From Thraustochytrium aureum (Eukaryota), in contig BLSG01000370.1 in assembly GCA_012862495.1 (NCBI GenBank), positions 34,893 to 98,892 on the forward strand: DNA of 64,000 nt, given 5' to 3'. Under the pieces are notes generated by a model that saw nothing but the letters and a program-made list of their open reading frames with translations, was not told the DNA's origin and did no database searches. Numbering within the stretch: position 1 is the first letter of the stretch; every line of letters begins with the position of its first letter. Made by a program: the position numbers and the translations under genes. Positions 7,389 to 64,000 of this stretch are shown one piece after another.

Positions 7389-7792
7389 CAGCTTGCGGTG
7401 CGGAAAGTAGTTGATGCGATGCGATGTATGTGACGGAACGCAAGTTTGTTTTCAGTTTCCATCTGGGCTGGCGCCGCAACGAAGAAGCGCCAACGAATGG
7501 GGCAGCCGTGGTGCAAGTGACCGTGCCCGAAGGAGCAAAGATGTGGGTGGATGCACTTTCAGCAATCGCATCCACCCCGTCGGCACTGCCCAACACCAAG
7601 GGCGTGGAGCCAAACTGAACCTCGTCTGTTGACTGTCCATGGTGGTTTTTAAACGCCGCGCACGCACGAGCGGACGGACAGTTTTCCCTGGATTTGCACC
7701 ATGTTTTAAAGAAGTCCTTGTCTTCATGAACAGTATAGTAGAGTTAGTATTGGTACTTCGATAGGAGATTCATCCATCAACGAGCTCGAAGG

Positions 7793-10700: not shown

Positions 10701-13351
10701 GACGCTTGGGAGACCACAGTCGGGGCCTCGGTGGCGGTTTTTGCAAAGCCCTCGTCTGAGGGCATCGGCGCAACCGCGGAGGCGCTTAATCGCGGCGGCT
10801 TTGGGCCGCCGAGCGCTTTGTCTTCGCCGTCAGCGTCTTTAGCATCTCTGACAGCAGCGGCGGCGGCTTCTTCTGCAGCCTCTTCTTCGTCAGCGGTTTC
10901 AAATCGCGAGAGGAGGATGGCCAGAAACAAGTTGAGAACCATGTAGTTGCCCACAAGGTTGAGGCTGACAAAGTAGACCCAGGAGATCTCGCCGTTGACT
11001 CTCTTGCCGATGTACATGACCTCGTTCCAGTTTTCACCAGTGAGGATTTGAAACACGGTGACAAACCCCCACCAGAAAGAATCGAAGTTGGGCCGCGGCG
11101 TGTCCGCACGACATGCCTCATAGTCAGTGTCGTCCTCACAGAAATACGACGCCCTCCAGTGCCCGCCAAAAAGCTGCATTCCCAGCAGCGTGAAGATGGA
11201 CATGATAATCACCAGCAGGATTGCTGCGTTGGTGACGTCGAGGATCGACATGAGAATTGTGCTCAGCAATTTGCGCAGGTTCTTCCACGATCGAGCGAGC
11301 TTGAAGACGCGCATCAATCGAAAGGTGCGCAGTGCCCCAAGCCCGCTTCCACCACTTTCATTCGAGTCAAAAATGAGCTCAACCAGGCTGACGGTCACGA
11401 TCATAAAGTCAAAGATGTTGAACGGGTCGCGCACGTACTGCCGGGGTCCCAGCCCTACAACCTTGAGCACCAACTCCGACGTGAACGCCACCGTAAAGAT
11501 AACGTTGGTTACGGCGAGGAAGGCCACCATTCCATCCGACATACCGTGCGACTCCATGGCGAGCGTGACGGTGTTGAGCACAATCAAAAGCGTGACGAGG
11601 TTGATGAAGGTGGAGCCTTGGACCAAATTAAATATTGCGCGAACGGGAGCCGGGCCCCACGGTTTCAACTCCAAGACTGCTGCTCGAGCCTCGGCTTCCT
11701 TCCTTGCAGCCTCCTCATGGGCTTCTGCGTTGGCAACCCGCGCCGCCTCCGTCCCGGGTTCGTGCGTATCGAGCTCATCCTCGAGCATATCCTCGACCGC
11801 CTTTCGCACGCGCTCCATCTCATCCTCTGCCGCCTGGTCGTAGGCGTCATTGATGACCGCAAGGGTGAGCTCGAGCATGAAAAACGAGCAGATCCAAACC
11901 ATGACAAAGAAGTAGGAAAAAACCACCAACGAGTGCCCAAACGTGGCTTGGATACCATACATGGTGTCGACCCAGCCTTCGAGCGTAATGCTCGTAAAGA
12001 TGGTGAGCCACGCGTAGCCAATGTTGTCAAAGTTGGCGTACCCGTCGCCAAGCTGATTCACCCCGGTGTCCAGACAGAACGACACAACCTTCAGAGAGGG
12101 GCTCGACACGTTGTAGAACTGTGTAAAATTCTCTGAGGCCAGGTTGACCTCCGTCAGGTTGAACTCGAAGCCTCGCCAAGGGATACTCTCTCTGTCGATA
12201 TCTGATTCGAGCGCTGCGCTGTACTGCTCCAAGAGCTCTCTGGGGAGCCAGACACTCCTCGATTCGAGCGGCGCGTCGGGCGAGGCAGAAGGATCAAACA
12301 AAGGATTCAGGATGATCGAGGGCCCGCGCATCGCGCACGACGCTCCGCTGAGCTCGAGGCAGTCCTCTGTCGTACGCGTCCAGGGATTCCATGAATTTTT
12401 ATCCTCCGCGAACTTTTGGTTGCAGGGCAGCGCGCACGGCATCTCGTCCGAGTCGAGAATGGTCATCATCGACATTGCCGCAACGGCGCTGTTCGTGGCA
12501 TCATGCTCGGCGTGCTCGTAGTTGCCGTTCCCGGTGGGGTCGACGTAGTGACAGCGACCGCGAAGCGTGCCCGAAAAGAGCTGCAAACCCACGATTCCAA
12601 ACACCGTGAACAAGAACAAACAGAGCATCAGCACGTGCACCATGCTCTTGATACACGCAATCATTGCGCTAACGATTGGGCGCATTCCTGGGATTGAGGA
12701 GAGGGTGCGGAGCGGGCGAAGCACGCGAAAAGTCCTGAGCACTGAGAGATTTGCCACGCCCGGGACGAAGGAGAGCCAGCTGAAGCCAACCACTACAAAA
12801 TCGAGAATGTTCCACCCGTTGCGGAGGTAGGTGCCCTTCCCGAAGACCAGCCCATGCGCGATGATCTTTATTGACATCTCGATGCTGAACATGACGTTGA
12901 AGAACATCTCTGCGCTGTCCTGGGTATCGCGCAGCACCAGGGACGCGCATCTGTTGTACGGGTCGTCTTCCAGGGAGCTTTTGTCGATGCAACACCGCGG
13001 CGCGTCGTTCGCGGACAAGAGCACATTGTCCATGTCGCAGAACTGCGAGTTGTCCCTCACGTCAACTTTAACCCATTTTTCGTCCGCGAGCTGCGAGTCC
13101 GTGCAGCAGGTTGCGAACGGTTCGGTCAGAGCGAGAAAAACGCAGTTCGCGATGATCAGGGTCAGCACAGTGTAGGTAAACACTGGCGATTCCGTGACGC
13201 GAAAGCACAGAATGCGTATGACGCTGTTCTTAGAGAATAAGCCCAGCGAGTTCTCCACGAGGTCCTGTCTTCGCTTTTTGGTCGACTTGACAACTACAGC
13301 GGGTGATGACGACCCATACGCACTGTCCAGCTGAACGCTCCCACCCGGCAT
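7793..13351 (-). CDS. Four-domain voltage-gated cation channel alpha subunit (Cav/Nav superfamily, EEEE filter); frameshifts near 9740 and 8050
   Basis: Four S4 helices (LRTFRVLRPLRTL, LRTFRLMRVFKLAR, LRSLRALRPLRVISR, LRVFRVGRIFRLVR). Pore loops TLEGW, TGENW, TGEMW, TGESF. C-terminal EF-hand-like FKEAWSKLDPKGT and IQ-like VQSSMRGFIQRRKL. Confidence 0.95.
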
Positions 13352-46805: not shown

Positions 46806-49721
46806 TTGCGTCAGGACTCACTGACACTGCCTTCGCCTGCGCGTTACTGCTCTGCTCGCGCGCCAGCCACGAGCTCCTTCCTCCCTTCCTCCTCCTCCTC
46901 CTCCTTTTCCTTCCTTCTTTCCTTCCTTCCTCTCTTCCTGAGGCTCTCTCTGCTGGCTGCTGGCTCCTCTCGTCGCTGTGAGAGGCCGCGCGGAACCCCC
47001 CTCACAGCGCATCGCCCTCACACCGCGCGCTGCACTCACATGCGGCGGCAGGGAGGCGGCAGGGAGGGTGCCGGCGGCCTCTGTGCGGGGTGTGAGGGGC
47101 GTCGCAGCGCCTCACATGGGGCTGTGAGGGGCCTGCGGGATTCGGGAGGCGGTTGTGAGGGGAGGCGGAGGCAGGGGGGAGGCAGGGAGGGAACGTACAT
47201 GCATACTCACTCTGCTGTGGATACGGCTTTGCGCTGTGCGTGGGTGCGCGTCACGATCGCAGTCGGCAACGGCGGTGACGCAAGCATTGCCTGGGACGCG
47301 CGCGGGTGGCGTCATGCAGCATCCAAGCAACGCGGTCGTTCTGTTTTCAATGGTCAAGATGCGCGTGCTTGCATCCAACCCGCGTCTGGTGCGGGTACAC
47401 AGAGGACGGACGAGCAGACCAGCACAGGCACGCAGGCAGGCAGGCGGTTGATTGGTCGAGTGGTCGAGGGCACGATCGATCGCAGCACCAGCCAGCAGCA
47501 CCAGCGGCGCCAGCAGCACCAGCAGCAACAGCAACCAGCGGCAGCGGCGGTGGCGGCGGTGGCGGCGGCGGCGGCGGTGGCGGTGGGGCCGGCCTTGGCA
47601 ACGTCGGCTCACTCAGCGGAAGGCTCGTCGTCGCCAGTGATGAACTGGAAGGGAGATGAGACAGCCTCGACAGACTGCGAGCGGCTCGGCCGCCAACTGA
47701 CAGACACGCACGACTCGGTTCGGAGTCGTCCGTTCCGAAGGAAGGAATCTAGGCCTACTGCCAAACGCCTCTCGTGTGGGCCGCTGGAAATCTTGCGCGC
47801 ATCCGCAAGGCCCACAGCCGCCGAGAGCCCAGCAGCAGCGCCTTGGCAGGCAGGTACTGACCTACGCGGCTGGGCATGGGACCCCGACCTAGGTACGTCG
47901 CGGCGGTGGACTCGGCCCGGCGCCCGTCGTCCGCCTGTCTGTCGGTCTGTCCGCCATCATGGGCCAACAGGCAGGCAGGCAGGCAGGCGCCTCTCTGCCC
48001 CTCACCGCGCAAGCACAAATCGCAAAACGCAACGCTCGTCCGCGGTTCCTTTGTTCCCGCTGCCCGCGGCGACACAGGATTCGGCAGCTCCGGGATCCTG
48101 CGCTGGCTGGCGAGGCTCGCGCGAATCCAATGCCCATCGGCCGGCCGGCGCGGCCCCATGAGATGATGGTGTTTCTGCGCCAACGCGCTGCCTGCTCCAC
48201 TCGCGGAAACCACCCACTGGCACGCGGGAGCCCACCCGCCCACGCACGCACGGCCTTGACGCGCTTGTGCTGGCAAACGACGCGGCCTGGGAGAATCTCG
48301 CGCTCGACAGAGCCGCCTCACGTGGTGCGTTTGTTTTTCAAGGGCCTGGTTTCACCTCCTTTCTTTTGGCTACTTTTCGTTCAGGTTTGTTTTGGACTTT
48401 GGTTTCGTCGATTCGTTTGGGGCCGAGCAAGTACTTGAACGCAATGGACGAAAAAAACGAAATTTTGAGTACAGCAAAAATCAAGGTTGAGGTTGGTTTT
48501 TTTTCTTGTTGGCGCCGTAATCCATTGCTGCAGTTCTTTCGGCGATGACGCGCGACGGCTCAACAGCGTCGCACGCGGCAGCCGTAGCGTGGACGCGCTG
48601 CCGCAAAACGGCCTCGTCACGCAGGCCCGCACTCGCCGCGCCCCCGCCGTCATTCAGGGTACCTAGCTGACGCGGGCGCCGCCAGGTGATGCCCGCACGC
48701 GAGGCTGCAATCCCCACCGCGCGCCGTGGACATAGCCGCCTCGGGTGAAATGCCATGGATCCTCCCGCGAACGCCATGCTCGGAGAGTCGGCGAGAGCAG
48801 GCTGCTGCGGGCCGCGGCCCTTCCTACCGGTACGTAGGTACGCCCTCGCTCGCTTGCCTGCTCGACGCAGGGCGCTGCCAGTCCGCAGCCGCTCCCGCCG
48901 CGACCTCGATGAAACCCACGCCCTCGCCGTCACCGAGCAAGTACAGAAAGTAACAAAGTAGCTGCTGGAGATCAGGCCTCCGGTCCCTCGCGCAGAGCAG
49001 CGTCCGGCCGTTCGCGGCATCGCGCGCGCGCGCGAGCTNNNNNNNNNNNNNNNNNNNNNNNNNNNNNNNNNNNNNNNNNNNNNNNNNNNNNNNNNNNNNN
49101 NNNNNNNNNNNNNNNNNNNNNNNNNNNNNNNNNNNNNNNNNNNNNNNNNNNNNNNNNNNNNNNNNNNNNNNNNNNNNNNNNNNNNNNNNNNNNNNNNNNN
49201 NNNNNNNNNNNNNNNNNNNNNNNNNNNNNNNNNNNNNNNNNNNNNNNNNNNNNNNNNNNNNNNNNNNNNNNNNNNNNNNNNNNNNNNNNNNNNNNNNNNN
49301 NNNNNNNNNNNNNNNNNNNNNNNNNNNNNNNNNNNNNNNNNNNNNNNNNNNNNNNNNNNNNNNNNNNNNNNNNNNNNNNNNNNNNNNNNNNNNNNNNNNN
49401 NNNNNNNNNNNNNNNNNNNNNNNNNNNNNNNNNNNNNNNNNNNNNNNNNNNNNNNNNNNNNNNNNNNNNNNNNNNNNNNNNNNNNNNNNNNNNNNNNNNN
49501 NNNNNNNNNNNNNNNNNNNNNNNNNNNNNNNNNNNNNNNNNNNNNNNNNNNNNNNNNNNNNNNNNNNNNNNNNNNNNNNNNNNNNNNNNNNNNNNNNNNN
49601 NNNNNNNNNNNNNNNNNNNNNNNNNNNNNNNNNNNNNNNNNNNNNNNNNNNNNNNNNNNNNNNNNNNNNNNNNNNNNNNNNNNNNNNNNNNNNNNNNNNN
49701 NNNNNNNNNNNNNNNNNNNNN

Positions 49722-52700
49722 GGACATTCTCAAGTGCGCTGGCAATAGCCTCCGCGAGTTTGTCAGCGAAGATGGCGTCCTCCTGGCTCACAGCGTCAAC
49801 GCTGAACGTGATCCCACCTGGGCGAACGTTATCGTGGTCCAACCAATCGCTCGTGCCATTGCAGTTGAAAAGAACAATGGGGTCCTCCTGGTCAATACTG
49901 CAAACCCAGTCTGACAAGTGACGGTGGAACGATGACGATCCTTCTTCCCCGACCTGCAGAAAATTGGGGTCGAAGCCTTTTGGATGGGGTGCGGCTGTGC
50001 GCAAGCAGCGGATCACCTCCTCTGTTGCCCAAACAATGCTCGTGCCCTTCATATACTCTGCAAAAGTGGTTGCGAAGAAATCCAGATGATCATGAGCTTT
50101 GCAAATCTCTGCAGCGCCCTTCTCGCGAGCTCGGGTCGTGATACTACCACGTGTCGACACTACAAGAACAGGATTCTCCCCAAAGCGCGAAATTGAAACA
50201 CGAGGCGGGGGAAGCGCAGAGCGAATCTCTTCAAGGACCTCGACGTTGAGTGTTGGATGCCCGAGAGTTGAGAGTGTGTCGTTCAACCGGCAAGACGCCA
50301 CGTCTTCGCTAGCATAGGCAGGGTGTGATTCACAGACAGCGCAAATAGCTTGGTCTGCTGCACGAAGTGGGCTTCCTTCAAGCCCAGCACCGAGGATGAG
50401 GCTCTCGACTAAGACCTGGAGGTCCTCGTTCACAGCCTGTTTGATGTGGTCAATTGTCTGGTCTTCCACCGAAAGCGTTGAGAGAAGTACGTCGAGTTGG
50501 TCATGGCGGTACGCAACCGACGTTTCGAGCAGACTGCTATGGTGTTTCTCGACGAAAAGGTCAAGGCCGCCGAAGCCACGAGACGCATCACTGCGGCGGA
50601 TGGCCACACTCCCTTTCACCTCAGGCAAGTAATGGACCGAAGCGTACACAATGCACCCGAGACGAGCTAACTCAGCTGCCTCGACTTGTCGCCCACACCT
50701 CGCAAAGTGCGCCACAGTCTTCTTGATAACCCGCCCGACCCTGTCATGCATTATGCCGTATGCCCCGACACAGATGTAAAACGAACGCACGAGAAGGTAG
50801 TCAAGTTCATGCAAGTTGTCCGGATCGCACATTGCAGCCCGAACTTTGTACACGTTTTCCAACGCCAGCGCAATCGCAGGATCCGACGGCGGCAGGAGAG
50901 CCTCGCGGATACGCAAGCTTTCCTCCGCGTTGAAAGCCGCCTCGTGTTTCGCCCCCATAGCGTCGTGGGTGACAGCCAAACCACCGAAAGACTTCGCCGT
51001 GACGAGGTGTAAGGTGCCGTATAGTTTGACGCGGATATCATGAGATTCTTGGCGCATTCGCAGTGACTCACGAAAAAGCCTGTCTGCTTCATCTAAATCG
51101 CGGTTTTTCTTGGCGGCTCGACCCTGTTGAAGGCGGCCAGCGGCCTCCGAAGCGAGGACCAGAGCAAGGAAGGAGAGTTCACCGACAGTCGGGTCAGGCT
51201 TGGACTCGACAATCTCGCGTGTCATTCGCAGGGCTAAGCCTCCATTTTCAGCCGAACCCGCGCCGCGGTCCTTTGACCTGTACATGATGTTACCCATGAG
51301 GTAAATAGCGCGTGCGAGAGGCAACCCGCTACCGTCACGACTACGACGTTCAAGAACAAGTGTCTGTACCTCCTTCGCCGCGTCGAACCAGGACAGGCCA
51401 AGGAAGAGACTTGCGAGTCGTTCAACAGCCTCTGTGCGCCTTCCATCCTCGTCCGCTCCGATGGACTGGATGTAGCTTGACGTGAGTGTTCGGCGCGCTT
51501 CCGTGAAGCTCGAACTGCAGGCAATGAAGTCCTTACACATCCGAAGCGTCTCGCCATGAGTGCCTTCCGAGAGCTGCATCTGTGCCTCTGCGACCTCCAG
51601 GGTAGCGTGCGATTCGACAAACTCATCAAGACGACGGAGTTTGAGCAATTGGAAGGGGAGCTCGAACACCCTTCGGAAGTTGTATCGCGCTGTTTCCAGA
51701 GACCCTGCCTCCCGAACAAGGGGCTGCGGGTCCACATAGCGATCACAGACCGTTCCTTTGTGCTCTTTGCCGCCGACGAACTTGCCGGCAAAGTAGTCGA
51801 CGAGGTTTTCACGAAACGAGTTGCTCACAGCTGTGCTCGGCAAGTAGCGCCGTGCGCAAAACCCCCGAACGACAGCGCTCGACCAACTAATCAGCGAAGC
51901 TGTGGTGTCGACAAGCATCGGGGACTCCTTGAGAAAAGGCTCCAAAAACACCGAGAACTTGGTCGAGAACCACAACTGGGCACCGACGGACCGGACGGTC
52001 CCAGTATTGGTAGACGGAATCGAGAACCTCGTTGTCGAGGCTCAAGAGGTCAAGCAGTTCCGTTTGTGAGAGGCCATCCCTTGACACCGTGATCAAGCTG
52101 CACACTGCTGCAACGACAGGCCTCCCGTAGTTGCGCTCTGCCTCGTCGAAAACAACGTCTAGTATTGACGAGGAAAAGGTGGAAGCGTCAACGATGCTGC
52201 TTGACGACCACGAGGACGCTATGCTTGCAGCGGCTCGCGACAAAATTCCGGTTGGCGCTGACCCAGAGTAGTTGCGCACATTTGTACCGACGATCTCCTC
52301 CAGGGTCTTCAAATGCTCACAAGAGAGGACGCGACCATGCTGCTCAAGGTGTGTCTTGAGCATAGCGCTCACTTGCGCCATCTCATTCTGCACCGTGTCG
52401 ACGTTAAAAATTGTAACGGCTTGAGCGTCACTGAGACCACTGTCATGAGTGTACGCGAAGCGGCAGCCGGTGCGTGCGTCCGAGGATGGGAAAAACACGT
52501 TGGCAGAGTGCTCGACAGTCTCGAGACCATCAAGAACGATGACCAAGACGCCGTCCTCGTCTGAACGAGCTGCAGCCTGAGTTAGAGCTGCGAGATAGCT
52601 CAGTCTGGCAGCGTCAAAGGACTGCTCGTCGATGTGCGCCGTTGCCGCATCCTCGTCCTCGTGAGGGAGATCAGACCCATGAGCCTTGGAGAGCTGATTC

Positions 52701-53365
52701 GTTATAGATTTGAGGAGCGTTGTTGCGCTCCCAGAATACGCTGCCACGTCGCGGTAAACAAATCGCCAAGTCTTTTGTGACCGCGCGCAAACTGTCACCA
52801 ATTCGGCGAGGAACGTGCTCCTACCGACACCAGGCGAGCCCTCGACACAGACGATTTTCGAGCTTGCATCTGTGAGCTCGCTCAGTGCCGCTTTGCACAG
52901 CTCAGCGTAGCCTTGCGACTTGGCGACGCTGCGAGTCAACTCATTGAAGTGAGTGAGGTGATTGCACGCCTCTCTGAACCCACGATCTGTGACCGTTGGG
53001 GCAACGAGCGACGATGAAAACAACGATGCAGCAATGATGCTCGAAAGCTTGTCCAAGATGTCCTGAACTGCGTCGAGCTTGATATCGCTTCCCGTGCTGA
53101 GTTGGCGATAGTCTGCGTTGACTGTGTCAACGAGACTCTCGCCGATAGCAGCTGCTGTTTTGTTGAACAGCGCCTTGACTTGTGCATGTTGGTTGTCAAA
53201 AAATTTGCGTCCGCCTTTTCGAGGTTGGCGAGTTGCCGGCGAACGCAGAACACGCTGAGACGCTCCGCATGATGCGCGCTAGCTTCGGTTTTTTCGAGGG
53301 CAAGCCTCGAGATGACTTCGTTGGCAGTAACAGATCTTGCCCACTCATTCGCGAACGCAGCAAAG
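49722..53365 (-). CDS. NWD1/NWD2-type NACHT (STAND) NTPase + TPR repeats + C-terminal degenerate FGase-like domain; both ends in gaps; frameshifts near 53200 and 51975
   Basis: SVTANEV, Walker A GSPGVGRST, Walker B LVIVLDGLE, NWD-like SRDGLSQTELLDLLSLDNEVLDSVYQYWDRPVRR and DRYVDPQPL..YNFRRVFELP. TPR-type ESLRIREALLPPSDPAIALALEN. The C-terminus aligns by eye to the 55852-57285 protein. Confidence 0.8.
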
Positions 53366-54140
53366 NNNNNNNNNNNNNNNNNNNNNNNNNNNNNNNNNNN
53401 NNNNNNNNNNNNNNNNNNNNNNNNNNNNNNNNNNNNNNNNNNNNNNNNNNNNNNNNNNNNNNNNNNNNNNNNNNNNNNNNNNNNNNNNNNNNNNNNNNNN
53501 NNNNNNNNNNNNNNNNNNNNNNNNNNNNNNNNNNNNNNNNNNNNNNNNNNNNNNNNNNNNNNNNNNNNNNNNNNNNNNNNNNNNNNNNNNNNNNNNNNNN
53601 NNNNNNNNNNNNNNNNNNNNNNNNNNNNNNNNNNNNNNNNNNNNNNNNNNNNNNNNNNNNNNNNNNNNNNNNNNNNNNNNNNNNNNNNNNNNNNNNNNNN
53701 NNNNNNNNNNNNNNNNNNNNNNNNNNNNNNNNNNNNNNNNNNNNNNNNNNNNNNNNNNNNNNNNNNNNNNNNNNNNNNNNNNNNNNNNNNNNNNNNNNNN
53801 NNNNNNNNNNNNNNNNNNNNNNNNNNNNNNNNNNNNNNNNNNNNNNNNNNNNNNNNNNNNNNNNNNNNNNNNNNNNNNNNNNNNNNNNNNNNNNNNNNNG
53901 TTTGCAAGTGGGCTTACCTTCTCACTACGAATACGGGAGGCGCGACCTCAAAACGGAAAAGTGAAGGAAAAGGCACTGCCGCCAAACCTTCGAGTAGGTC
54001 AGGCAAGCCCCATCATGATGGAGGCGGCTAGCTGGAGAGGACCCAGGCCAGCCCATGAGGGCCCGAAGCCAAATGCGAATCGAAAGTTGAGTAGTGTAGG
54101 GTATCCAGATGTCGGAGAACTCGAACGTGATCATCCAACA

Positions 54141-54327
54141 CCGTCACGGGCCGTGATGGTAGGGCTGGAAGAGTACTCGATCGAGTACCTACTGCAACTC
54201 CAGTTGCTCTCAGTGCCCACTCGGCGACCACTGCCAGTCGACTCATAAACGCGCTTGGTTTTCGCCAAGAAGAGTGTCCACTTGCTACTAGAGCTAGAGA
54301 GTAGGAAGTACCGGTAGGGTACTTCCT
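54141..54327. promoter_or_regulatory. Cluster of inverted repeats between divergently oriented genes
   Basis: Imperfect IR 54141-54159; perfect 16-bp palindrome GTACTCGATCGAGTAC 54173-54188; AGGAAGTACC-N5-GGTACTTCCT 54303-54327. Regulatory role is inferred only. Confidence 0.35.
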
Positions 54328-54638
54328 GAGCGTACTCTGCTCGGCTCACGTGATGATAATGAGACGAGCCTTGCAACCAACCATTTTCCTTGCATCGTGT
54401 GCACCCGATTCACGTCTCGTCTCGGCAAAACGTTCCCGCAAAGAAGATGCTCCGAAAGATTGTGGGCGACTGACGAGCCGATGGTCGTATCATCGTAGCA
54501 GGACTCGAACGAGTGCTGGTGTTGGCGAAACAGGGGACCAGTGCCTGAGTAGGTCCACGTCGGGGCCATTGGCTACAAGGCAGCGCGCGATAGGCTCACG
54601 GCAACATCAAGCGGCCAAGCAACTCTGGTGCTTTCGAG

Positions 54639-55544
54639 ATGGCGGAAATGCCAAAGAAAGTGGGAGAGCCAAGGGGCCGTCTGCTCGTACGCATCCTGCG
54701 GGAAGTTGCCGCGGCCAAAGACCTTGAGTTTGAGACGCTCTCAAGCGGGTGGATCTGTGTGCTTAGCGGAAAGGATGGCCGTCGAGTCGCAGTCTGTGGT
54801 TGTGCTTTCCCGCTCAACAGTCAATCTGCTGCAAACTTCGCTCTGGATAAGGCCTCCGCAAGCGCTATGTTCGCAAGCTTAGGCGTGTCTCACATACCCC
54901 ACGTTGTCGTCTTCGGCCCTGGGGTTTCTTACTCGATGGCAACCTCTACCCGAACGAACGGGACCATGGCCTCCCTCTTCGATCTTTTGGATACTTGGGC
55001 ATCTAGCGGTGGCCTCGTTCTCAAGCCAAAGGCAGGGACAGGAGGCACTGATGTGCTCCGTGCGCAAACTCGACTTGAAGTTGAGAAGTGCTGGCTACAC
55101 CTCTTGAAAGGTGGGGCGCGAGACTTCGTCGTTTCGCCATTCTTCCCGCTCCTAACCGAATGGCGTCTCATGATCCTTGACGACATCCTCTACGTCTGTT
55201 ATGCGAAAGTTCGAGCGGATGCAAGCGTCGAATGGCGCCACAATGTCTCGCTAGGTTCTGCTACGAGAGTCGAGACAGATGAAGCCTTCGTCCAAGGCTC
55301 CCTTTGGCCGCTAGCATCCAAGGCGATGGCGGCCCTCGGCTTGCGTTTTGCATCCGTCGACATTGTTCAACTCGACTTGACAAAGAGCTCAGATTTGCAT
55401 CGTCAGCACGCAGATTCAAATGGATTGATGGTTATGGAGGTCAACAGCGCGGTCTTTGCGGATGGTTTCATTAAACAGCACCCTGAACAACTTGAGCAAG
55501 TGCGGCGAATGTTCGACGCTGCCGTGACGAAGTGCTTTGATTGA
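54639..55544 (+). CDS. RimK-like ATP-grasp amide ligase (bacterial-type), intronless, 301 aa
   Basis: ATP-grasp motifs ALDK, VLKPKAGTGGTDV, VSPF..EWRL, WRHNVSLG, FASVDI, VMEVNS; uninterrupted ORF. Confidence 0.88.
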   Translation: MAEMPKKVGEPRGRLLVRILREVAAAKDLEFETLSSGWICVLSGKDGRRVAVCGCAFPLNSQSAANFALDKASASAMFASLGVSHIPHVVVFGPGVSYSMATSTRTNGTMASLFDLLDTWASSGGLVLKPKAGTGGTDVLRAQTRLEVEKCWLHLLKGGARDFVVSPFFPLLTEWRLMILDDILYVCYAKVRADASVEWRHNVSLGSATRVETDEAFVQGSLWPLASKAMAALGLRFASVDIVQLDLTKSSDLHRQHADSNGLMVMEVNSAVFADGFIKQHPEQLEQVRRMFDAAVTKCFD

Positions 55545-55851
55545 TTGAGAAAGAGTAGAAAAGCTGAGTGATTATAGTCCATGGTGTTACTGGGTTATAA
55601 CTGCGGAAAAGTGTAGTAATTCGGCCGCCCCTTAGCCAGCCAGTGACGTGACATTTCTGCGCGCGACAGAGGCCGCGTGCTGAAAAGCCCCCAGACCAGT
55701 CCCATAGGAACCGGGCCGACTAAGAAAAGTCTGAAGATGGCGAAGTGCCAGACGAACAATGGCTTTGAATGATTGTCTTTTTGGTGTGGCGAGATGAAGC
55801 AGTATAATTGAAGATTGTAGGTGTACCGCGTCAGCTTCGATTTCAGCTGCT

Positions 55852-57285
55852 TCAGGTCTTCAGACCCAGCAGATACAGCTCACGGAAGACTTTGAATGCG
55901 TGAGCAAACCGTAGTCCAAGACCTGTGTCGAGAACTAGTGCGACACGGAAATCCCGACTCATCTCACATTGAACCGCAAAGACTTGCCCGTCCAATAAAT
56001 CGACAACCTGACGCGTCACGGTCCGATAATCGTTGCCTCCCCGTCCAGCATACTTCGGGTTGGTGTCGACAGCCCAAGGCTCGCCGATCGCGTCTTGGAC
56101 TAGCTCCACCAACTTGGACTTCCACAGTTGATAGTCAGCCTCTGAAAAGCCAAGATGGTCGCGCGTTGAACCCTCAAAGAAACGATCCATCGCCCCAAAC
56201 CCGAGTGTTACCGCCCCATGTTTCCCGTCGACTTTCCAGTTCTGCCTTCCGTGACAGTCAACATGGAAGACGATACTTGACTGAATTCCATCAGACTTCC
56301 ATTTCGACAGGACCTGACGAAGCTTGTTGTGAAAACCACAGTCTGCTTCCGTTCCCAAAACAAGATAGTTAGGGTCCAGCGCTTTTGGGTGGGGCATTTT
56401 CGTCCTCATACCTCTCACGATCTCCGAGAACGACCATCCAAGCAAACTCCCTTGCAGTTCCGATGCCACACGCCAAGCGCCAAACTGCGTGTACGTTTCT
56501 GGCCGGTGTAGCTCGTCGCCTTTGCGAACAAGAAAAGTGCCATGCGGGCTCGTTATGAGCACCTTCTCTTTGTCAAGGCGTTCAAGAACAGCTTCTGGTC
56601 CAGGAATCGACACAGACAGGAGGTCGGCCAAGTCGTTGGCCAGCCCAAGCTCTGAGGCCAGCCTTGAGGCCGATCCGCTCTTTACCTGCGCAACGACTCG
56701 CTTAGCGCTCCGGCCGAGTTCACTTGTGTCGAGAGGGCGCCCGGCCTCACCAGGAGCGCTCTGAAGTTGCAGAGCTAGTTGGGACCAATCACCGTTGCAG
56801 TGTTTGGCTACTCGTTCTGCGTCCGCCTCGCCAACGCCAAGACTTTTGGCCCAGTCTTTGATTGCGTCGTCATTCCTTGCAGCAGAAAGAGCTTCCTCCC
56901 ACATTTCTTGAAGCTCCTTGCTCTGCGTTTCCACCTGAACATCGTTCTCCACAGGTCCAGCAATTTCCAGCGCTATTACAACCAGCTCGATCGCCCTCAT
57001 CAAGTCCTCACTTCGCTCCACCCGCGCAAGGTCTCCGATTGCCTTTACAGCGGCAAGTCCAAAGGGTTCCTCCGCGCGTATGCGCGCAATCTCCCGCTCC
57101 AAAGCAAGGACCCTGTACTTCTGGACCCAGCGCAGGGCGCGGTCAGGCAGCGCCCCAATGAGTGTGGCAAGTGTCTGCCCCATCCTTCCAGCTCCGTCAA
57201 GCGCCTGTCGAGCGAGTGCAGCCCCGGGTCGCGCGATGCCTAGCCACAACTGCTTGTCAAATCCAAGCGAAGGGTGCCTGGCCAC
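55852..57285 (-). CDS. N-formylglutamate amidohydrolase-like (FGase / poly-gamma-glutamate hydrolase clan) Zn hydrolase with helical N-terminal extension; start uncertain (first ATG at 57183)
   Basis: LITSPHG, PETYT, LDPN, GFH, HVDCHG, VTLGFG, NPKYAG, TVT, AVQCEMSRDFR, in the order typical of this fold. Confidence 0.75.
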   Translation of the reverse strand: MARHPSLGFDKQLWLGIARPGAALARQALDGAGRMGQTLATLIGALPDRALRWVQKYRVLALEREIARIRAEEPFGLAAVKAIGDLARVERSEDLMRAIELVVIALEIAGPVENDVQVETQSKELQEMWEEALSAARNDDAIKDWAKSLGVGEADAERVAKHCNGDWSQLALQLQSAPGEAGRPLDTSELGRSAKRVVAQVKSGSASRLASELGLANDLADLLSVSIPGPEAVLERLDKEKVLITSPHGTFLVRKGDELHRPETYTQFGAWRVASELQGSLLGWSFSEIVRGMRTKMPHPKALDPNYLVLGTEADCGFHNKLRQVLSKWKSDGIQSSIVFHVDCHGRQNWKVDGKHGAVTLGFGAMDRFFEGSTRDHLGFSEADYQLWKSKLVELVQDAIGEPWAVDTNPKYAGRGGNDYRTVTRQVVDLLDGQVFAVQCEMSRDFRVALVLDTGLGLRFAHAFKVFRELYLLGLKT

Positions 57286-58028
57286 TGACCGTGCGTTGTG
57301 GGTCTGCTGCTGTTCTGCGTGACGTCTTCATGCTGGCCCTTCTCTGCACGACTCGGAGTCTGGCGTCTATCATCGACTTCGGAAGTCTCACACGTGCTTG
57401 ACCTCCTGGAGAAGTGTGCACGGCGTCAATCATCATCGAAAGCCTGCTTGGCGCGGAAGAGTTGCGCGGGGCGTTGCGCAGAAAAGGTGCGCAACGCGAA
57501 AGACGACGACAGGCTCTCACGAGTTTGGCTGTCCTGGTGGCTGCCGAGTGATCGTTTCCTTCGATTGACATGTGTCACGAGTTGTGTGCCAACCAGCCAG
57601 AGAAGGTCTGTAGGGGGTACCGTAGAACTTTGACGAGCGTGTCACACGACCACCCCCCGTGACGAGCGCGGCGTCGCACGAGTCACGAGAATCCCCCATG
57701 TGACCTGTACGAGCGCGTCTTGCCCGAGCGCGCGCGTCACAGAGGGGCGAGCGAGCGCCTCAACGGATCGTTTTCGGTCGAGCACATGTGGGCAAAGGCG
57801 ACGAACAGACTGGACTTGGCGCGCGGCCTGAAGGGTGCGGCGTTGGTCCCGCGACGCGCGCGCCTCAGGACCGAGGGCTTCCCGAATTGACGGGCTCGGG
57901 CTCTCCCTGGAATTGCTCGCGCGCCGTCTCGGCGCGGCGGTGTGCGTCTCTTGTTGGTGTCCCCGAGTTGGCGCACGTTAGTTGGCGAACAAACCCGTGG
58001 GCGGAAGGAAAGGCGACAAAGGCACGGC

Positions 58029-59452
58029 ATGGGCTGCAGGCCTTGGCAGTGCGCGGACGAGGCGCCGGCGAGCGCATCGTCGACGTCGGTGCTGCAGCGC
58101 ATCGCCAAACGGGCGATTTCAAAGGCGATCAGCGACGCCGTCTCGGCCGTGTCCAGGCGGTTTGCTGAGAAAGTTCGGCACCAGGACAGCCAGAGCGGGG
58201 CGAGCCGAGGCCGCGCGCCGCCGGCCGGGGCGGCGCTGCCGGCCCCAATCCCTTGCTTGGTGATCGCAGTCTCGGCCCCCCGCGCCTCATCGGCTCCAGC
58301 TCTCCCAATCGCTCAAATTGGCACAGCGCCCTCGGCAGAGCCTGGCGCAAGCGATGCGAAGCGCTGGAAGAACCGGCTGTACAACCGGCGCACGCTGCCG
58401 ACGATTCCTTACGTGCTGGAGAACCGCGCGGCGTGGCTCGGCCCAACCAAAGAGTCCAACTGGGTTCTGCCGGGGCGCCTCATCGCCGGTGCGTACCCGC
58501 TGGCCTGGACGGCCAAGCGCGGCCGAGTGACGATTCACAAGAAGGACCTGTTCAGCCTCCTTGAGGTCGGCGTCACCACCTTTGTCTGTCTGCAGGACGA
58601 GTACAATTGTGTGAGCAACGAGGAGTTCGAGCGCCAGCACCCGGTCATTCTCGAGACTAGCTCGAAAAAGGTCGTCGCTGCGGGCGCGGTCGGGCCTGCT
58701 GGTGCAGTTGCCACAGAACCAGGCGGGCATGGCGGGGCGACTGGATGCACAGCAAAGAAGGGGGTCATTTCCCGTACATCTTCGACGCCGCGCGGGCCAT
58801 CCAGGCCGCGCATGGGTCGTGGAAAAATCGGTTGCACTTTATGCACCTGCCCATCGTAGACCTCAACTGCACCGAAGACGAGCCCGTGCTGGAACTAGCG
58901 CTGGATCTGGCCAGGAGACTTGCGGCGGCGACGGGGCCGCACAAGGACGCAGTAATCTACCTGCATTGCTGGGGAGGACACGGGCGCACGGGGACGCTCG
59001 TCGCCGTGATCCTGGGAATCCTGTACGCCCTGTCGCCCGCGGAGGCGCTAGAGCGCACCCAGCTCTACCACGACATCCGTCGCTGCAAGCTGCAGGTCGC
59101 ATCGCCGCAAACGAGCGCCAGCGCGCTCAGGTCCGCCGCATCCTCAGCTCCGCGAAGGCCCACGCGGCCATGGCCGAGTTTGGCGCCAAGTCTTTTCCGG
59201 CCCCCAGCCCGTCTTGCTTTGACCGCGACATAGAGTTCCACGCGCGTGTTGCTGAGACCAGCGAGCGCCAAGCTGCCGCGCCGTTGCGCGCCGCACCGCG
59301 CCTCGAGGAAAAGTGCGCCGATGCGGAGGTGGTCTTCGGCGCTGTGGCGCCTGCTCCGGATTTCCACGTCGAGAGCAAGCTTGAGATGGCCGGGGACTCG
59401 CCGTGCTCAATGCTTTCCCACCCTGACGTGGAGTGCAAGGTCGACGACTTTA
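58029..59452 (+). CDS. CX5R protein tyrosine/dual-specificity phosphatase; frameshifts near 58740 and 59120; 3' end in gap
   Basis: SNWVLPGRLIAGAYP, GVTTFVCLQ, HLPIVD, YLHCWGGHGRTG, SPQT. Confidence 0.88.
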
Positions 59453-60287
59453 NNNNNNNNNNNNNNNNNNNNNNNNNNNNNNNNNNNNNNNNNNNNNNNN
59501 NNNNNNNNNNNNNNNNNNNNNNNNNNNNNNNNNNNNNNNNNNNNNNNNNNNNNNNNNNNNNNNNNNNNNNNNNNNNNNNNNNNNNNNNNNNNNNNNNNNN
59601 NNNNNNNNNNNNNNNNNNNNNNNNNNNNNNNNNNNNNNNNNNNNNNNNNNNNNNNNNNNNNNNNNNNNNNNNNNNNNNNNNNNNNNNNNNNNNNNNNNNN
59701 NNNNNNNNNNNNNNNNNNNNNNNNNNNNNNNNNNNNNNNNNNNNNNNNNNNNNNNNNNNNNNNNNNNNNNNNNNNNNNNNNNNNNNNNNNNNNNNNNNNN
59801 NNNNNNNNNNNNNNNNNNNNNNNNNNNNNNNNNNNNNNNNNNNNNNNNNNNNNNNNNNNNNNNNNNNNNNNNNNNNNNNNNNNNNNNNNNNNNNNNNNNN
59901 NNNNNNNNNNNNNNNNNNNNNNNNNNNNNNNNNNNNNNNNNNNNNNNNNNNNNNNNNNNNNNNNNNNNNNNNNNNNNNNNNNNNNNNNNNNNNNNNNNNN
60001 NNNNNNNNNNNNNNNNNNNNNNNNNNNNNNNNNNNNNNNNNNNNNNNNNNNNNNNNNNNNNNNNNNNNNNNNNNNNNNNNNNNNNNNNNNNNNNNNNNNN
60101 NNNNNNNNNNNNNNNNNNNNNNNNNNNNNNNNNNNNNNNNNNNNNNNNNNNNNNNNNNNNNNNNNNNNNNNNNNNNNNNNNNNNNNNNNNNNNNNNNNNN
60201 NNNNNNNNNNNNNNNNNNNNNNNNNNNNNNNNNNNNNNNNNNNNNNNNNNNNNNNNNNNNNNNNNNNNNNNNNNNNNNNNNNNNNNT

Positions 60288-63025
60288 CGCTCCACTTCGG
60301 CGAGCTGCTCCATGCCGGCCCTGATCTGGCTCCGGAGCCGCTCGGCCTCCGTGCTGTGGGCTTGCTGCTCGCGGGCAAGCACCTCGGCTAGTTCGTCCGA
60401 GTGGCGAGCGCGCAGGTCTTCAACGGCTTGCTCGTGAGCCCTCTCGCGCTCGCGCAGGTCGTCCTCCAGCCTCCGAAGCCGCTCGTTCATCTTGTGATGA
60501 TCCTCGCGCGCGCGCACCTCGAGCGCCGCGATGGCTTCTGCGTGGTGCTTGGCCTTGCGCGCCGATTCTTCGCGGGCCGCCTCCGCGCTTCTGGAGATCT
60601 GGGCCTCGAATTCGGCTTTGACCGCGGCCAGCTCGGCGTGAAAGGCGGCCTCCTTGTCGCGCAAGAGCTGCTGCTTTTCGTCCAGCGTGGCCTCTGTGTG
60701 CTTGAGGTTTGTGATTAGCTTTGCCTTGTCCGACTCTAGCGATTGCCGCGCGCGGCTCTCGTGCTCCACGCTCGACTTGAGCCTCTCGCACGACTTTTCA
60801 AGCGACATGACGTGCTCGTCGAGCCCGCCCTTCTCTTGGCTGATGAGGTCGAGACGGTGCTGCAGCACCGTCTCTTTTCCTTGAAATGCTCGAGCTCGCC
60901 GCGCAGCCGCGTCGCCTCTTCTTGGATCGCGCAGAGCTTTTCGACCTTTTGCTTTTCGACCTCGAGCAGCTCTGTCATCGAGCTAACTTTGGCGCTCATT
61001 GTGGCCAGGTTTGCTGAGAGCCCTGCCTTTTCCGTCTCCATGCCCTTGATGCTGGTCTCGAGCTGCGTGGTCTTCGCTTGCTCGGCTTGGACCTGGCGCG
61101 CCAGCTCGGCGTACTCGGCCTTGTGCTGGGCGGCCTCCTTCTCTAGCTTGGTCTTGAGCTCCACGGACGCTTGCTCGGTGGCCGCAATCTTGCGCGCTGC
61201 CTCCTCCTGCTTGGCGGCCATCTCCTGCTTGAGGACTTGGAGTTTTTGCTGGGCCTCTTGGCGGGCTCGCTGCTCGAGGACGTGCTTTTTGCGTCAGCTG
61301 CTGAAGCGTCTGCTTTGTCTGCGTGATCTCCAGCTCGGCCTGCGAGACCTGAGACTTTAGCTTCTCGGCGACCTTCTTGGCGAGGTCGAGTTCCTGCGCG
61401 TGCTTTTGCTCGGTCTCGGTCAAGGTCGCCTTGAGCGTGTCGATTTGCGAGATCTGCCGCTTGTTGAGCTTGATCGCGTCGAATAGGGTGCGCTCCTTGT
61501 CTTCGAGCACGCTGCTCATTTCGGTCACCTTGGCCTGGAGCGACGCGGCCTGCCTTTCCTGCTCCTCGGCGCGCGCTTTGGCGGCGCTCAGGGCCTGCTC
61601 GCTCTCCTTGAACGTCTTCATCATTTCCTCGTCCACGTAGACGGACCCATCCGAGTCGTCCATGTCGGCTGCTAGCCGCGCCGCGTCAATCTCGACGACC
61701 GTCTCGTTTACTTTGGCGTCCACCTCGACGCACATGGCGCGCGAGGCGAACTCGAGCGTGGAGAGCGTCTCGCTCGTGCTCGTCTCTGCGGGCGAGACGC
61801 AGACCAGCAGCGCCGTTTTGCAGTTGCCGCCGACAGAGCCCTCCAAGATGCGGGTCAGCTTCGAGTCGCGAAAGGGAACGTGCTTGCGCTTGTCTGCGAG
61901 CGCCTGGATCACGTTGCCAAGCGCCAAGAGGCTGCCGTTGATGTTGGTGGCCTCCTTAAAGTTCGAGCCGGTCACGCCGCTACGCTTGACGCGCTCGCTT
62001 CCCGCCAAGTCGACCACGCTGAGCTGCCCACACGTGGCCTGGATCTTGCGCAGCTGCCCCTCGCCTTCGCCGCCCTGCGCTCGCGCACGCCTCGTCACGC
62101 GGACCTGGAACACCGCGTGCGAGCGACTCGAGGACTTGTTCATTTTGGTCTCGGCGTAAAAGAGCCCGGAGCGGGCGCGCTTAAACGTCTCCAGCATCGA
62201 TGCTGGCGACTTGCAGTCTACCCAGCACAGCTCGGGGATGCCGCCGCCCTTTTGAACGTTCAGGTTTTGGCCCTCGCCCTTCTTGTAGCCGGGGTGGAGG
62301 AGGTCGTCCACCTGCTCGTTGTACACTTGGAAACCGGCGGCTTGTACCGTGTACACGTTGCTCTTGTCCATGGCGGCGCGCGCATACAGCGTGGCTACGA
62401 GGCGCGGAAGGATGCCGACTTCCTCCATGTCGCTCACCTCCGTGTTGAGCAGCGAGTAGGTCTTGCCGGACCCGGTCTGCCCGTACGCAAAGATGCAGCC
62501 GTTGAATCCCTTCATCACCTCGACGAGGACGGGCAGGCCCACGCGCTGAAACACCTCCTTCTGACTAGCGCTCTCCGGGAAGGCGCCGTCTAGCTTGTAC
62601 GCCTTTTCCTTGCGGTCCATGTGCACCTCTTTGGTCTCGTTCAGGCAGCTCATCACGTCGGGGCCTGTGCTCACCGCGACCCGCTCATTCTCGGTGNNNN
62701 NNNNNNNNNNNNNNNNNNNNNNNNNNNNNNNNNNNNNNNNNNNNNNNNNNNNNNNNNNNNNNNNNNNNNNNNNNNNNNNNNNNNNNNNNNNNNNNNNNNN
62801 NNNNNNNNNNNNNNNNNNNNNNNNNNNNNNNNNNNNNNNNNNNNNNNNNNNNNNNNNNNNNNNNNNNNNNNNNNNNNNNNNNNNNTCGGTGTCCATCTCT
62901 ACGGCAGGTAGGTCGCCCGACTCGCGATCCAAGAACGGTCTCGACCGAGCAAACACCAGCACGCGCCCCGCGGCTGCCGTGGCAGGGGCCGCCTTGCCCC
63001 CGACGCTCCCCTTCCTGCTCGCCAT
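60288..63025 (-). CDS. Kinesin with N-terminal motor and long coiled coil; frameshifts near 61290 and 60875; 3' end in gap
   Basis: FAYGQTGSGKT, MNKSSSRSH, VDLAGSER, HVPFRDSKLTRIL, ETLSTLEFASRA. Confidence 0.95.
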
Positions 63026-64000
63026 CTTCCCAGTCTCAGCGCGCCCCGAGCAAGCCAACAGAGGGCGGCGTGTAAGTCCGCGACCCGCTTCCACCCAAGC
63101 CCGTCAGCCGAGCGCGCGTCAGAGGCCGCCGAGCCGCAAGCCTCGACTGCCGCCGCCAACCTCGCCAGCGGGGTCGGTNACCCAGGCAGGTCCACGAGCA
63201 TAAAGCGCCGTCGGCCACGCACACGAGCGAGCGTCAAGAGCACACAGCCCGTCGCGCCCCAATCCAACACAAGCCTGCGTGCAGGTCGCAGCGCGCTGGA
63301 GCTCTAGAGCAGCGCTCCTCGATGGCGGGCGGTAGCGAGCGAGGCTGCCGTGCCCGATCGAAACGAATGACCACTGCCCCCGATTGGAGTCTACCGAGCG
63401 AATCCCGCGGCGCGCTCGAGCCAAATCCGCGGCGCAGCAGCTCGATGCGAGCGGCGCGCAGTTTAGCCGATATCGTCGCGGAGGCAGCCGCGTCTTGGAC
63501 AACCACGCAGGTGTCCGTTGGAAATGGATACGTTGGAGCCGTTCGGCGTTGGCTGTTGCGGACTCGAGATCGGACGCGGCGCGGTTGTCGTGGACTTGGC
63601 CTGCTCGTTGTCTTCGTTGCCGCGGTTTCATTTCACTTCAACGGCCTTTGGTTTAGTTTGGTGCTGTTTCTGGTGCTGCTGTGGCTTGGCGCGCCGCAGT
63701 CGCGCGCAGCGGAGGCCGCGCAGTAGTCGCGCGCAGTCGATCCAAGCTGGACGATTTTTGCACGGGAAGCCCGCAACGCAAGTGCGCAGGCCAAGTCGAA
63801 GCCGCGCTGTCTGTCGAGGCGAGCGCGGCTCTCGGTGGCAGCTGCTCCTAGCAGGGCCAATAATAAAATAGCCCGTGGGCGACCGCAAACGCGTTGAGGC
63901 GCGCGGGCCGCAGCGTGAGCGTTTGACAGGATGGAGTCGAAACGCGAGGGAAAGGAGGACGAGTTTCGCAGCCTCGGCAACTCGAGGAGCAACTTGACAG

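Follow-up and report, generated by a model that had tools for sequence, protein, structure and literature searches.

A Thraustochytrium aureum locus with an NWD/TEP1-type STAND protein that ends in a dead hydrolase copy, linked to genes for the hydrolase and an ATP-grasp ligase

We analysed a stretch of 64,000 nucleotides from Thraustochytrium aureum (NCBI GenBank assembly GCA_012862495.1, contig BLSG01000370.1, positions 34,893 to 98,892 of the forward strand), which is called the window below and whose own positions are used throughout. It contains a block of three genes encoding a STAND protein (minus strand, 49722-53364), an ATP-grasp ligase (plus strand, 54639-55544), and a hydrolase (minus strand, 55852-57183), an order and orientation already given by the original prediction, which had been made from the sequence alone. 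The STAND protein ends in a catalytically dead copy of the hydrolase encoded two genes away. This architecture is real and conserved, and it is apparently undescribed; it appears to represent a new form of NLR-like receptor with an integrated domain. A circuit formed by all three genes is plausible. We tentatively read the locus as a glutamyl write/erase/read switch acting on an NLR-like protein, a reading that we consider possible but short of probable.

Results

The free hydrolase has an FGase/PGA-hydrolase fold

The hydrolase gene (55852..57183, minus strand) encodes a protein of 443 residues, classified by its AlphaFold model and by motif counts as a putative zinc hydrolase. TPR-like helices (residues 1-100) and a connector are followed by a catalytic domain with H214, E229, H311, E407, and R413. 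The model (pLDDT 90) has a Zn-exopeptidase-like fold, and the best matches in a fold search (VIA) were 2odf (Z 15.1; root mean square deviation, 4.0; 204 residues aligned), the FGase 2q7s (Z 13.0), PghP (3a9l; Z 12.8; deviation, 3.9; 184 residues aligned), and YndL/PghL (5onj; Z 12.4), the next row scoring 10.9. As the STAND tail of the window is cut by a gap, the orthologous tail P0038 was modelled in its place (pLDDT 95) and gave Z scores of 15.4, 12.8, 13.4, and 13.1 to 2odf, 2q7s, 3a9l, and 5onj, respectively. The FGase-like fold, for which the original prediction had asked for a structure search, was thereby confirmed for the hydrolase and the orthologous tail (Z 12-15). The PDB sequences held no match to the hydrolase, and the Pfam model FGase (PF05013; cut-off, 28.9 bits) did not match the window protein; the relative P0044 and a Nocardia protein described below reach 23 bits.

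PghL binds zinc through His41, Glu46, and His102 and uses Glu165 for catalysis; its Arg171 holds the glutamate carboxylate of the substrate in place (accessible part of PMC6506827). Mapped from PghL by order and motif, the His-Glu-His zinc ligands would be H214, E229, and H311 and the catalytic Glu would be E407; from the spacing we infer that R413 is equivalent to Arg171. A library search returned 109 relatives of the hydrolase. After a length filter had removed 12 of 113 gathered hydrolase domains, 99 non-STAND rows were left, in which, counting filled columns, H214 is kept in 95 of 95, E229 in 95 of 96, D309 and H311 each in 98 of 98, E407 in 95 of 96, and R413 in 96 of 96 cases. The arginine six positions after the glutamate (E+6) is present in 95 of 99 family members.

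That the poly-gamma-glutamate (PGA) hydrolases PghP and PghL are among the closest solved folds and that the E+6 Arg is kept would also suit a sensor of foreign glutamyl polymer, in which poly-gamma-glutamate or a like microbial product would be bound by the STAND tail and cleared by the hydrolase, with a ligase product that is amplifying or unrelated. With an identity of 16-18% to PghP and PghL, a higher score for the FGase-like 2odf, and no match in the PDB sequences, this explanation appears improbable to us.

The hydrolase family is widespread in eukaryotes, including Amoebidium and a dinoflagellate. Apparently undescribed itself, it includes fusions to gamma-glutamyl cyclotransferase, BPL_N, SET-MYND-TPR, zf-MYND, ubiquitin, or F5/8 (P0067, P0128/P0147, P0165, P0135, P0074, P0073), gamma-glutamyl cyclotransferase being the partner in P0067, P0128/P0147, and P0165. 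A word search for relatives found none among 3,322 candidates, although the Hondaea hydrolase (46% identical) exists, and a plasmid search with the hydrolase gave no match. The viral contigs contained neither a relative of P0076 nor a relative of the ligase. The top atlas look-alikes of the hydrolase are unnamed phage clusters. For P0145, the taxon id 87120 denotes a fungus, which is at odds with the relatives of this protein and is probably a typing error in the source record.

The STAND tail is a conserved dead copy of the hydrolase

The proposal that the STAND C terminus is a paralogue of the hydrolase was borne out by BLASTP (25% identity over 252 amino acids, E 7e-20) and by profile-profile comparison (probability 99.9, E 2e-31). 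The homology spans the last ~350-450 STAND residues and includes the TPR-like helices. In the window the tail, delimited by paralogy (49722..50562, minus strand), comprises a helical connector and, from about 50211, the pseudo-hydrolase domain. It is cut by a scaffold gap (49039..49721, minus strand) that presumably holds the last ~80 STAND codons including the catalytic-Glu position; the orthologues run on for 75-90 residues beyond this 3' cut, and the contig of sequencing run X1 reaches 270 letters past 49723.

In the window tail, H214 is replaced by R (at 50151), E229 by H (50094), D309 by N (49866), and H311 by N (49860), whereas D-P-N (49971) is retained. Three orthologous STAND proteins carry a dead tail too. 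At E229 the four tails have Q, Q, Q, and H and at D309 V, V, V, and N, so that both residues are lost in all of them, and E407 is lost (S, S, H) in the three tails with visible ends. The tails thus lack the zinc Glu and, where their end is visible, the catalytic Glu that an active hydrolase has. Loss of the metal-binding histidines, as originally reported, holds for the window protein (R and N) but not for the family: H214 corresponds to H, H, C, and R and H311 to H, H, H, and N, with both retained in two of the four tails, and what is lost family-wide is the zinc Glu, the Asp of the DxH motif, and the catalytic Glu. W250, D-P-N, and G312 are present in all four tails, R413 is retained in two of three (R, R, C), and next to the former Glu site all four have acquired an H-x-D motif. 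With these losses and retentions, the tail is a conserved pseudo-enzyme in which much of the pocket survives. A complex prediction for the Hondaea hydrolase and the Hondaea STAND tail scored 0.00 and gives no evidence either way.

A quick tree built from a subset of 47 rows groups the four tails as a single clade (SH-aLRT 97) that is sister to the three free hydrolases (98 for the seven). The dead tail is accordingly judged to be old and to stem from one old duplication. TPR-connector-hydrolase proteins branch nearby, outside the thraustochytrid clade, namely P0039, with all five residues kept, and P0130 of Pterocystis, with the catalytic Glu lost; in view of these proteins, the free enzyme may have split off as a copy from an older fusion. 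The locus could then be what is left of an ancestral STAND-TPR-hydrolase protein that was split by a partial duplication into a free active enzyme and a STAND protein with a non-catalytic structural or regulatory tail serving in housekeeping, the linkage being a leftover and the ligase a chance neighbour. The inclusion of the TPR-like helices in the alignment, the broad eukaryotic distribution of the family with its 109 matches, and the finding that human NWD-type proteins are not all NADases (accessible part of bioRxiv 10.64898/2026.05.01.722283) would fit such a split. We consider it unlikely all the same, because the adjacency of the genes outlasted divergence to 27-46% identity, the DUF4062 Glu described below is kept in three of three STAND proteins, and two hints (P0001/P0144 and Nocardia) link the ligase to the hydrolase. 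Independently of this question, the change that removed the catalytic Glu of the Pterocystis protein differs from that in the tails, and a dead copy may thus have arisen a second time.

The main rival of the proposed switch also concerns the tail, which could be an integrated decoy or guard, that is, a bait for a virus or parasite protein targeting the hydrolase or for a protein mark laid by an invader, with the ligase as a bystander or as the metabolic partner of the hydrolase. Its position C-terminal after the repeats is the usual place of integrated decoys (accessible part of PMC5485727). In the window lineage the tail evolves faster than the hydrolase (end branch 1.3 versus 0.65), and pocket residues vary between tails. 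Among viral proteins, the best fold match to the hydrolase comes from Megaviridae (BFVD A0A5J6VL35; E 1e-11, TM 0.81 of target), from which it follows that giant viruses carry the hydrolase fold; this match fits a role in conflict but does not choose between the readings. That H-x-D is new in all four tails and D-P-N is kept argues for a selected pocket rather than a free-drifting surface, and bait alone leaves the position of the ligase between the two genes and the pairing found in Nocardia unexplained. We regard this explanation as rather unlikely.

Orthologues of the STAND protein start with a TIR-like DUF4062 domain

Ahead of the tail, the STAND gene of the window is split over three frames, all on the minus strand. 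Frame 1 (53198..53364), recognised by a motif match, holds the probable end of DUF4062 with an S-x-T-x-x-E motif. Frame 2 (51935..53197), assigned by Pfam, holds a P-loop NTPase (Walker A from 52840, 52814-52840; Walker B near 52540) and an NWD1-like winged helix. Frame 3 (50563..51933), likewise assigned by Pfam, holds a helical domain and, from about 51093, kinesin-light-chain (KLC)-like TPR repeats. AAA_16 (38.5 bits), NPHP3_N (34.7 bits), and HTH_NWD1 (41.9 bits) scored over their Pfam cut-offs, TPR_10 reached 27.8 bits (cut-off, 27.5) and TPR_12 29.8 bits (cut-off, 30.1), and the model of an orthologue gave fold matches to KLC TPR. A P-loop NTPase followed by an NWD1-like winged helix characterises the DUF4062-NACHT (NWD/TEP1-type) STAND proteins, and we assign the orthologues to this group on the basis of their domain sequences; the window protein is likely to work in the same manner. 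From the original label "NACHT-TPR" the P-loop NTPase and the TPR repeats can be retained, but the Pfam NACHT model stayed under its cut-off on the window protein (18 bits; cut-off, 26.7), and the type is better given as DUF4062-NTPase-HTH_NWD1.

Two one-base indels, each within an A run (at about 53197 and about 51934), separate the three frames. At 53197..53203 run X1 has one A more, and at 51934..51937 runs X1 and X3 have one letter fewer, so that X1 carries the frame-restoring form at both sites and X3 at 51934; the X3 contig stops inside the A run at 53197 and says nothing on that indel. Runs X1-X3 belong to one study and may be RNA. By frame arithmetic, the two X1 changes together join all three frames. 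The orthologues P0037 (1,423 amino acids, Hondaea) and P0054 (1,510 amino acids), which are 27-33% identical to the window protein (tblastn of frame 2 against P0037, E 9e-43), are continuous. As both A-run frameshifts are absent from X1 and the orthologues are continuous, a pseudogene as the general state was ruled out. With 14 other letters in 3.6 kb of the STAND gene, the copy of this strain could be an inactive allele.

Frame 1 is preceded by a scaffold gap of 534 N (53366..53899, minus strand) that presumably holds the start codon and the first ~165 STAND codons with most of DUF4062; the window sequence picks up at about residue 165 of P0037 and shows only the last ~55 residues of the domain. 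The orthologues P0037 (Pfam 25.4 bits; cut-off, 24.7) and P0054 have DUF4062 at their start, an N-terminal output domain that the original prediction overlooked. The N terminus of P0037 matches the solved TIR-like domain of TEP1 (11gz_A, E 5e-7); the 55-residue piece of the window found no match among PDB sequences. S-x-T-x-x-E occurs in the window, in P0037 (E187), in P0054, and in 12 of 12 bacterial DUF4062 sequences, a likeness at the level of the motif, with a profile match that is not significant; these 12 were taken from 14 sequences extracted from 25 loci, two odd ones being set aside. Counting from two TEP1 arginines, E1008 falls at most 2 residues from E187 of P0037. The Glu encoded at 53319 is therefore likely, as far as sequence can tell, to be the TIR-like catalytic Glu, and it is retained in all three STAND proteins. 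For TEP1 (E1008) and for bacterial defence, DUF4062 is described as an NADase of TIR-like type, and the signal activating TEP1 is called unknown (accessible part of bioRxiv 10.64898/2026.05.01.722283). Because the orthologues start with this output domain, the immune reading of the locus is strengthened.

The ligase is an ATP-grasp enzyme

The ligase gene (54639..55544, plus strand) is a single open frame of 301 codons in which the catalytic motifs are present. K70, K128, E173, R175, D240, E266, and N268 are invariant in 23 of 23 aligned ligases and supply the Lys pair, ExR, and ExN of the ATP-grasp superfamily. The roles of these motifs are in part general knowledge of the superfamily. For the others we relied on the accessible part of PMC4431377, which also defines R2K.3 by ExGD in place of ExN; ExN is present in all 23 ligases. 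The enzyme has an atlas similarity of 0.97 to RimK clusters, and we classify it as an ATP-grasp enzyme that is neither RimK proper nor R2K.3. It shares a clade (95) with three close relatives, a number similar to that for the hydrolase and the STAND protein. The ligase P0001 is 56% identical to it. No match was found among PDB sequences.

Genes of PNKP-ligase type lie near the ligase relatives L009 (Actinosynnema) and L011 (Saccharothrix), and RlaP is also found in L009. A role of the ligase in RNA repair was set aside, since the contexts of these relatives vary.

Arrangement of the genes in the window and in other genomes

The STAND and ligase genes are arranged head to head, with the 534-N gap in between, and the ligase and hydrolase genes tail to tail, with a spacer of 307 bp. 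The last two lie on one contig together with GC-rich host genes. The block had been described as lower in GC, and it indeed has a GC content of 0.52-0.57 per kb compared with 0.62-0.70 in the flanks and a GC content at third codon positions (GC3) of 0.58-0.62 compared with 0.73-0.87 in 10 other hand-picked open reading frames of the window. Low overall GC is not unique to the trio, as a second stretch at 7-13 kb has similar values (0.55-0.59); this stretch (7000-13000) covers a long gene that we take to be ion-channel-like. Because all three genes have old eukaryote-type orthologues, their low GC3 probably reflects weak codon bias and not recent import. Contamination or recent transfer was ruled out, as host genes lie on the contig of the ligase and hydrolase genes and diverged orthologues of eukaryote type exist for each gene of the trio.

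Hondaea fermentalgiana is the nearest named relative for two of the three genes. Its hydrolase (GBG34147.1) and STAND protein (GBG34148.1) have consecutive accessions (EukProt P010673 and P010674), and the contig listed for each of them is 108,832 bp long. The two genes have thus stayed adjacent although orthologues are down to 27-46% identity. That linkage in Hondaea is seen for the hydrolase and STAND genes only would also fit a tail that serves as bait. Two observations hint that the ligase belongs to the set as well. For the ligase P0001 and the hydrolase P0144 alike, the sources listed are JGI and MMETSP and the longest contig has 2,895 bp; their coding sequences sum to 2,487 nt, which suggests, circumstantially, that both genes and a spacer fit on one contig. 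In Nocardia niigatensis (L005), the gene directly after a ligase relative is FGase-like, retains all five residues, and is the sole family match in this 8.2-Mb genome. Neither Nocardia-type gene was found in 400 other Actinomycetota genomes (including the unpublished G005), with 5-7 candidates scored per genome, and the hydrolase profile found nothing in three of four ligase-bearing bacterial genomes. The Nocardia pairing is suggestive, a single case and not a pattern.

The Nocardia genes lie in a low-GC island between insertion sequences (L005:7908-14779) that holds the ligase, the FGase-like gene, and a gene for a 391-residue HEXXH protein without a Pfam match. The island faces a TPR gene and a CHAT protease gene that are parted by an insertion sequence, and it looks like a conflict module.

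Elsewhere in the window, a perfect 10-bp inverted repeat with a 5-nt loop (54303-54327) lies in the upstream region common to the STAND and ligase genes and may be due to chance. The genes at 57891-59452 and 60287-63103, which from their motifs we take to be tyrosine-phosphatase-like (HCxGGxGRT motif) and a kinesin, also appear frame-shifted, and indel errors may therefore be common in the assembly.

Discussion

In the switch that we tentatively prefer, the ligase would mark a protein or small molecule with residues of glutamate type, and the hydrolase would take these residues off and so hold the mark below a threshold. Higher ligase activity, or a hydrolase that is inhibited or missing, for instance in an infected cell, would let the mark bind to the dead copy in the STAND tail. 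This binding would release the autoinhibition by the TPR repeats, the NTPase would oligomerise, and the N-terminal DUF4062 domains would cluster and, as predicted, consume NAD+ or signal. Ligand-gated oligomerisation is established STAND behaviour (a passage of bioRxiv 10.64898/2026.05.01.722283 and general knowledge). Glutamyl chemistry is inferred from the RimK-like ligase, the fold neighbours of the hydrolase, the E+6 Arg, and the gamma-glutamyl cyclotransferase fusions.

Several observations weigh against the switch, and the role of the ligase is its weak link. RimK-like is a fair label with respect to the atlas clusters and the ATP-grasp motifs, but the match to the RimK family of alpha-L-glutamate ligases (TIGR00768; E 1e-8) has 34.8 bits, far under the cut-off of 143. 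The STAND and ligase genes are joined only across the 534-N scaffold gap. In Hondaea, the consecutive accessions imply that no annotated gene lies between the hydrolase and STAND genes; no Hondaea-named ligase turned up, in the same word search that missed the Hondaea hydrolase, so that its absence is not established. Among 30 loci of more distant ligase relatives, an FGase-like gene was found at one, which is also the only one among the 16 loci with at least 1.5 kb on each side. The eukaryote-like ligase relative L016 has no FGase-like gene on its 5-kb contig, and none of 180 collected proteins contains both ligase and hydrolase domains. The linkage of the hydrolase and STAND genes is to be expected from local duplication alone. 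Within the STAND protein, R413 is replaced by Cys in P0054, the position of TEP1 R908 is Thr in P0037, and no NADase activity was seen with human NWD1, NWD2, and NPHP3 as purified proteins (accessible part of bioRxiv 10.64898/2026.05.01.722283). Walker A of the window carries Arg in place of the Lys of P0037 and P0054, and runs X1 and X2 have no other letter at this codon. On the longest branch of its clade, and with both His of the tail lost, the window STAND is the most diverged copy and may be weakened or rewired.

The original prediction of a ligase-hydrolase-sensor module is partly supported. The fold, the conserved dead copy, the hydrolase-STAND linkage in Hondaea, and the hints of ligase-hydrolase pairing speak for the module, but 15 of 16 well-flanked ligase loci, and with them most ligase relatives, have no such neighbour. 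In its widest form, the proposal would be that thraustochytrid-like protists possess a clustered immune circuit with a glutamyl instead of a nucleotide messenger, in which an ATP-grasp enzyme writes the mark, a zinc hydrolase erases it, and an NLR-like protein that arose from a dead eraser reads it and fires a TIR-like NADase, and that removal of the mark may be what giant viruses carry the hydrolase fold for. Taken as a whole, this is doubtful. The locus would nevertheless matter in three respects. The activating ligands of DUF4062-NACHT proteins are unknown, and the tail of this member points to a likely ligand class that its neighbours may make and destroy. An enzyme has here turned into a receptor domain through duplication within one locus. 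Finally, the locus offers a handle on the innate immunity of marine stramenopile protists.

The module had not been recognised as described in eukaryotes, and in line with this the literature searched, which leaves out most subscription journals, yielded no description of this cluster or of a STAND protein with a dead domain of FGase fold at its end; PADLOC gave no meaningful match. Among known systems, the nearest are the DUF4062-NACHT STAND proteins human TEP1, NWD1, NWD2, and NPHP3, which share DUF4062, the NTPase, the NWD1-like winged helix, and repeats, the N terminus of the orthologue matching the TIR-like domain of TEP1. The locus differs from them in the pseudo-hydrolase end copied from a linked gene, in the clustering with two enzyme genes, and in the Lys-to-Arg exchange in Walker A of the window. 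Plant NLRs with integrated domains (accessible part of PMC9528084) likewise combine a STAND receptor with an additional domain that resembles a host protein, and their genes are tightly linked head to head. Here the receptor is not of the NB-ARC-LRR type, the linked genes encode enzymes and not a helper NLR, and an active paralogue of the integrated domain lies near by.

In the fungal NWD2/HET-S pairs (accessible part of PMC5485727), a STAND gene and its neighbour also have a homologous segment in common. Their segment is an N-terminal amyloid motif of ~21 residues that passes the signal on, whereas the one described here is a C-terminal enzyme fold of ~350 residues on the sensor side. Pseudomonas RimABK (accessible part of PMC11957791) resembles the proposed switch in combining a RimK-type ATP-grasp writer with a protease that removes glutamates. 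Its eraser is a retropepsin-like aspartic protease, a STAND reader is not mentioned in that part of the source, and the ligase of the window lies far below the RimK cut-off. With FGase (2q7s, 2odf) and PghP/PghL (3a9l, 5onj; accessible part of PMC6506827), the hydrolase shares the fold, the His-Glu-His zinc set, the distal catalytic Glu, and the E+6 Arg. It differs from them in an identity of 13-18%, the absence of a Pfam FGase match, an extra helical N-terminal half, and a distance from the first His to the Glu of 15 residues compared with 5 in PghL.

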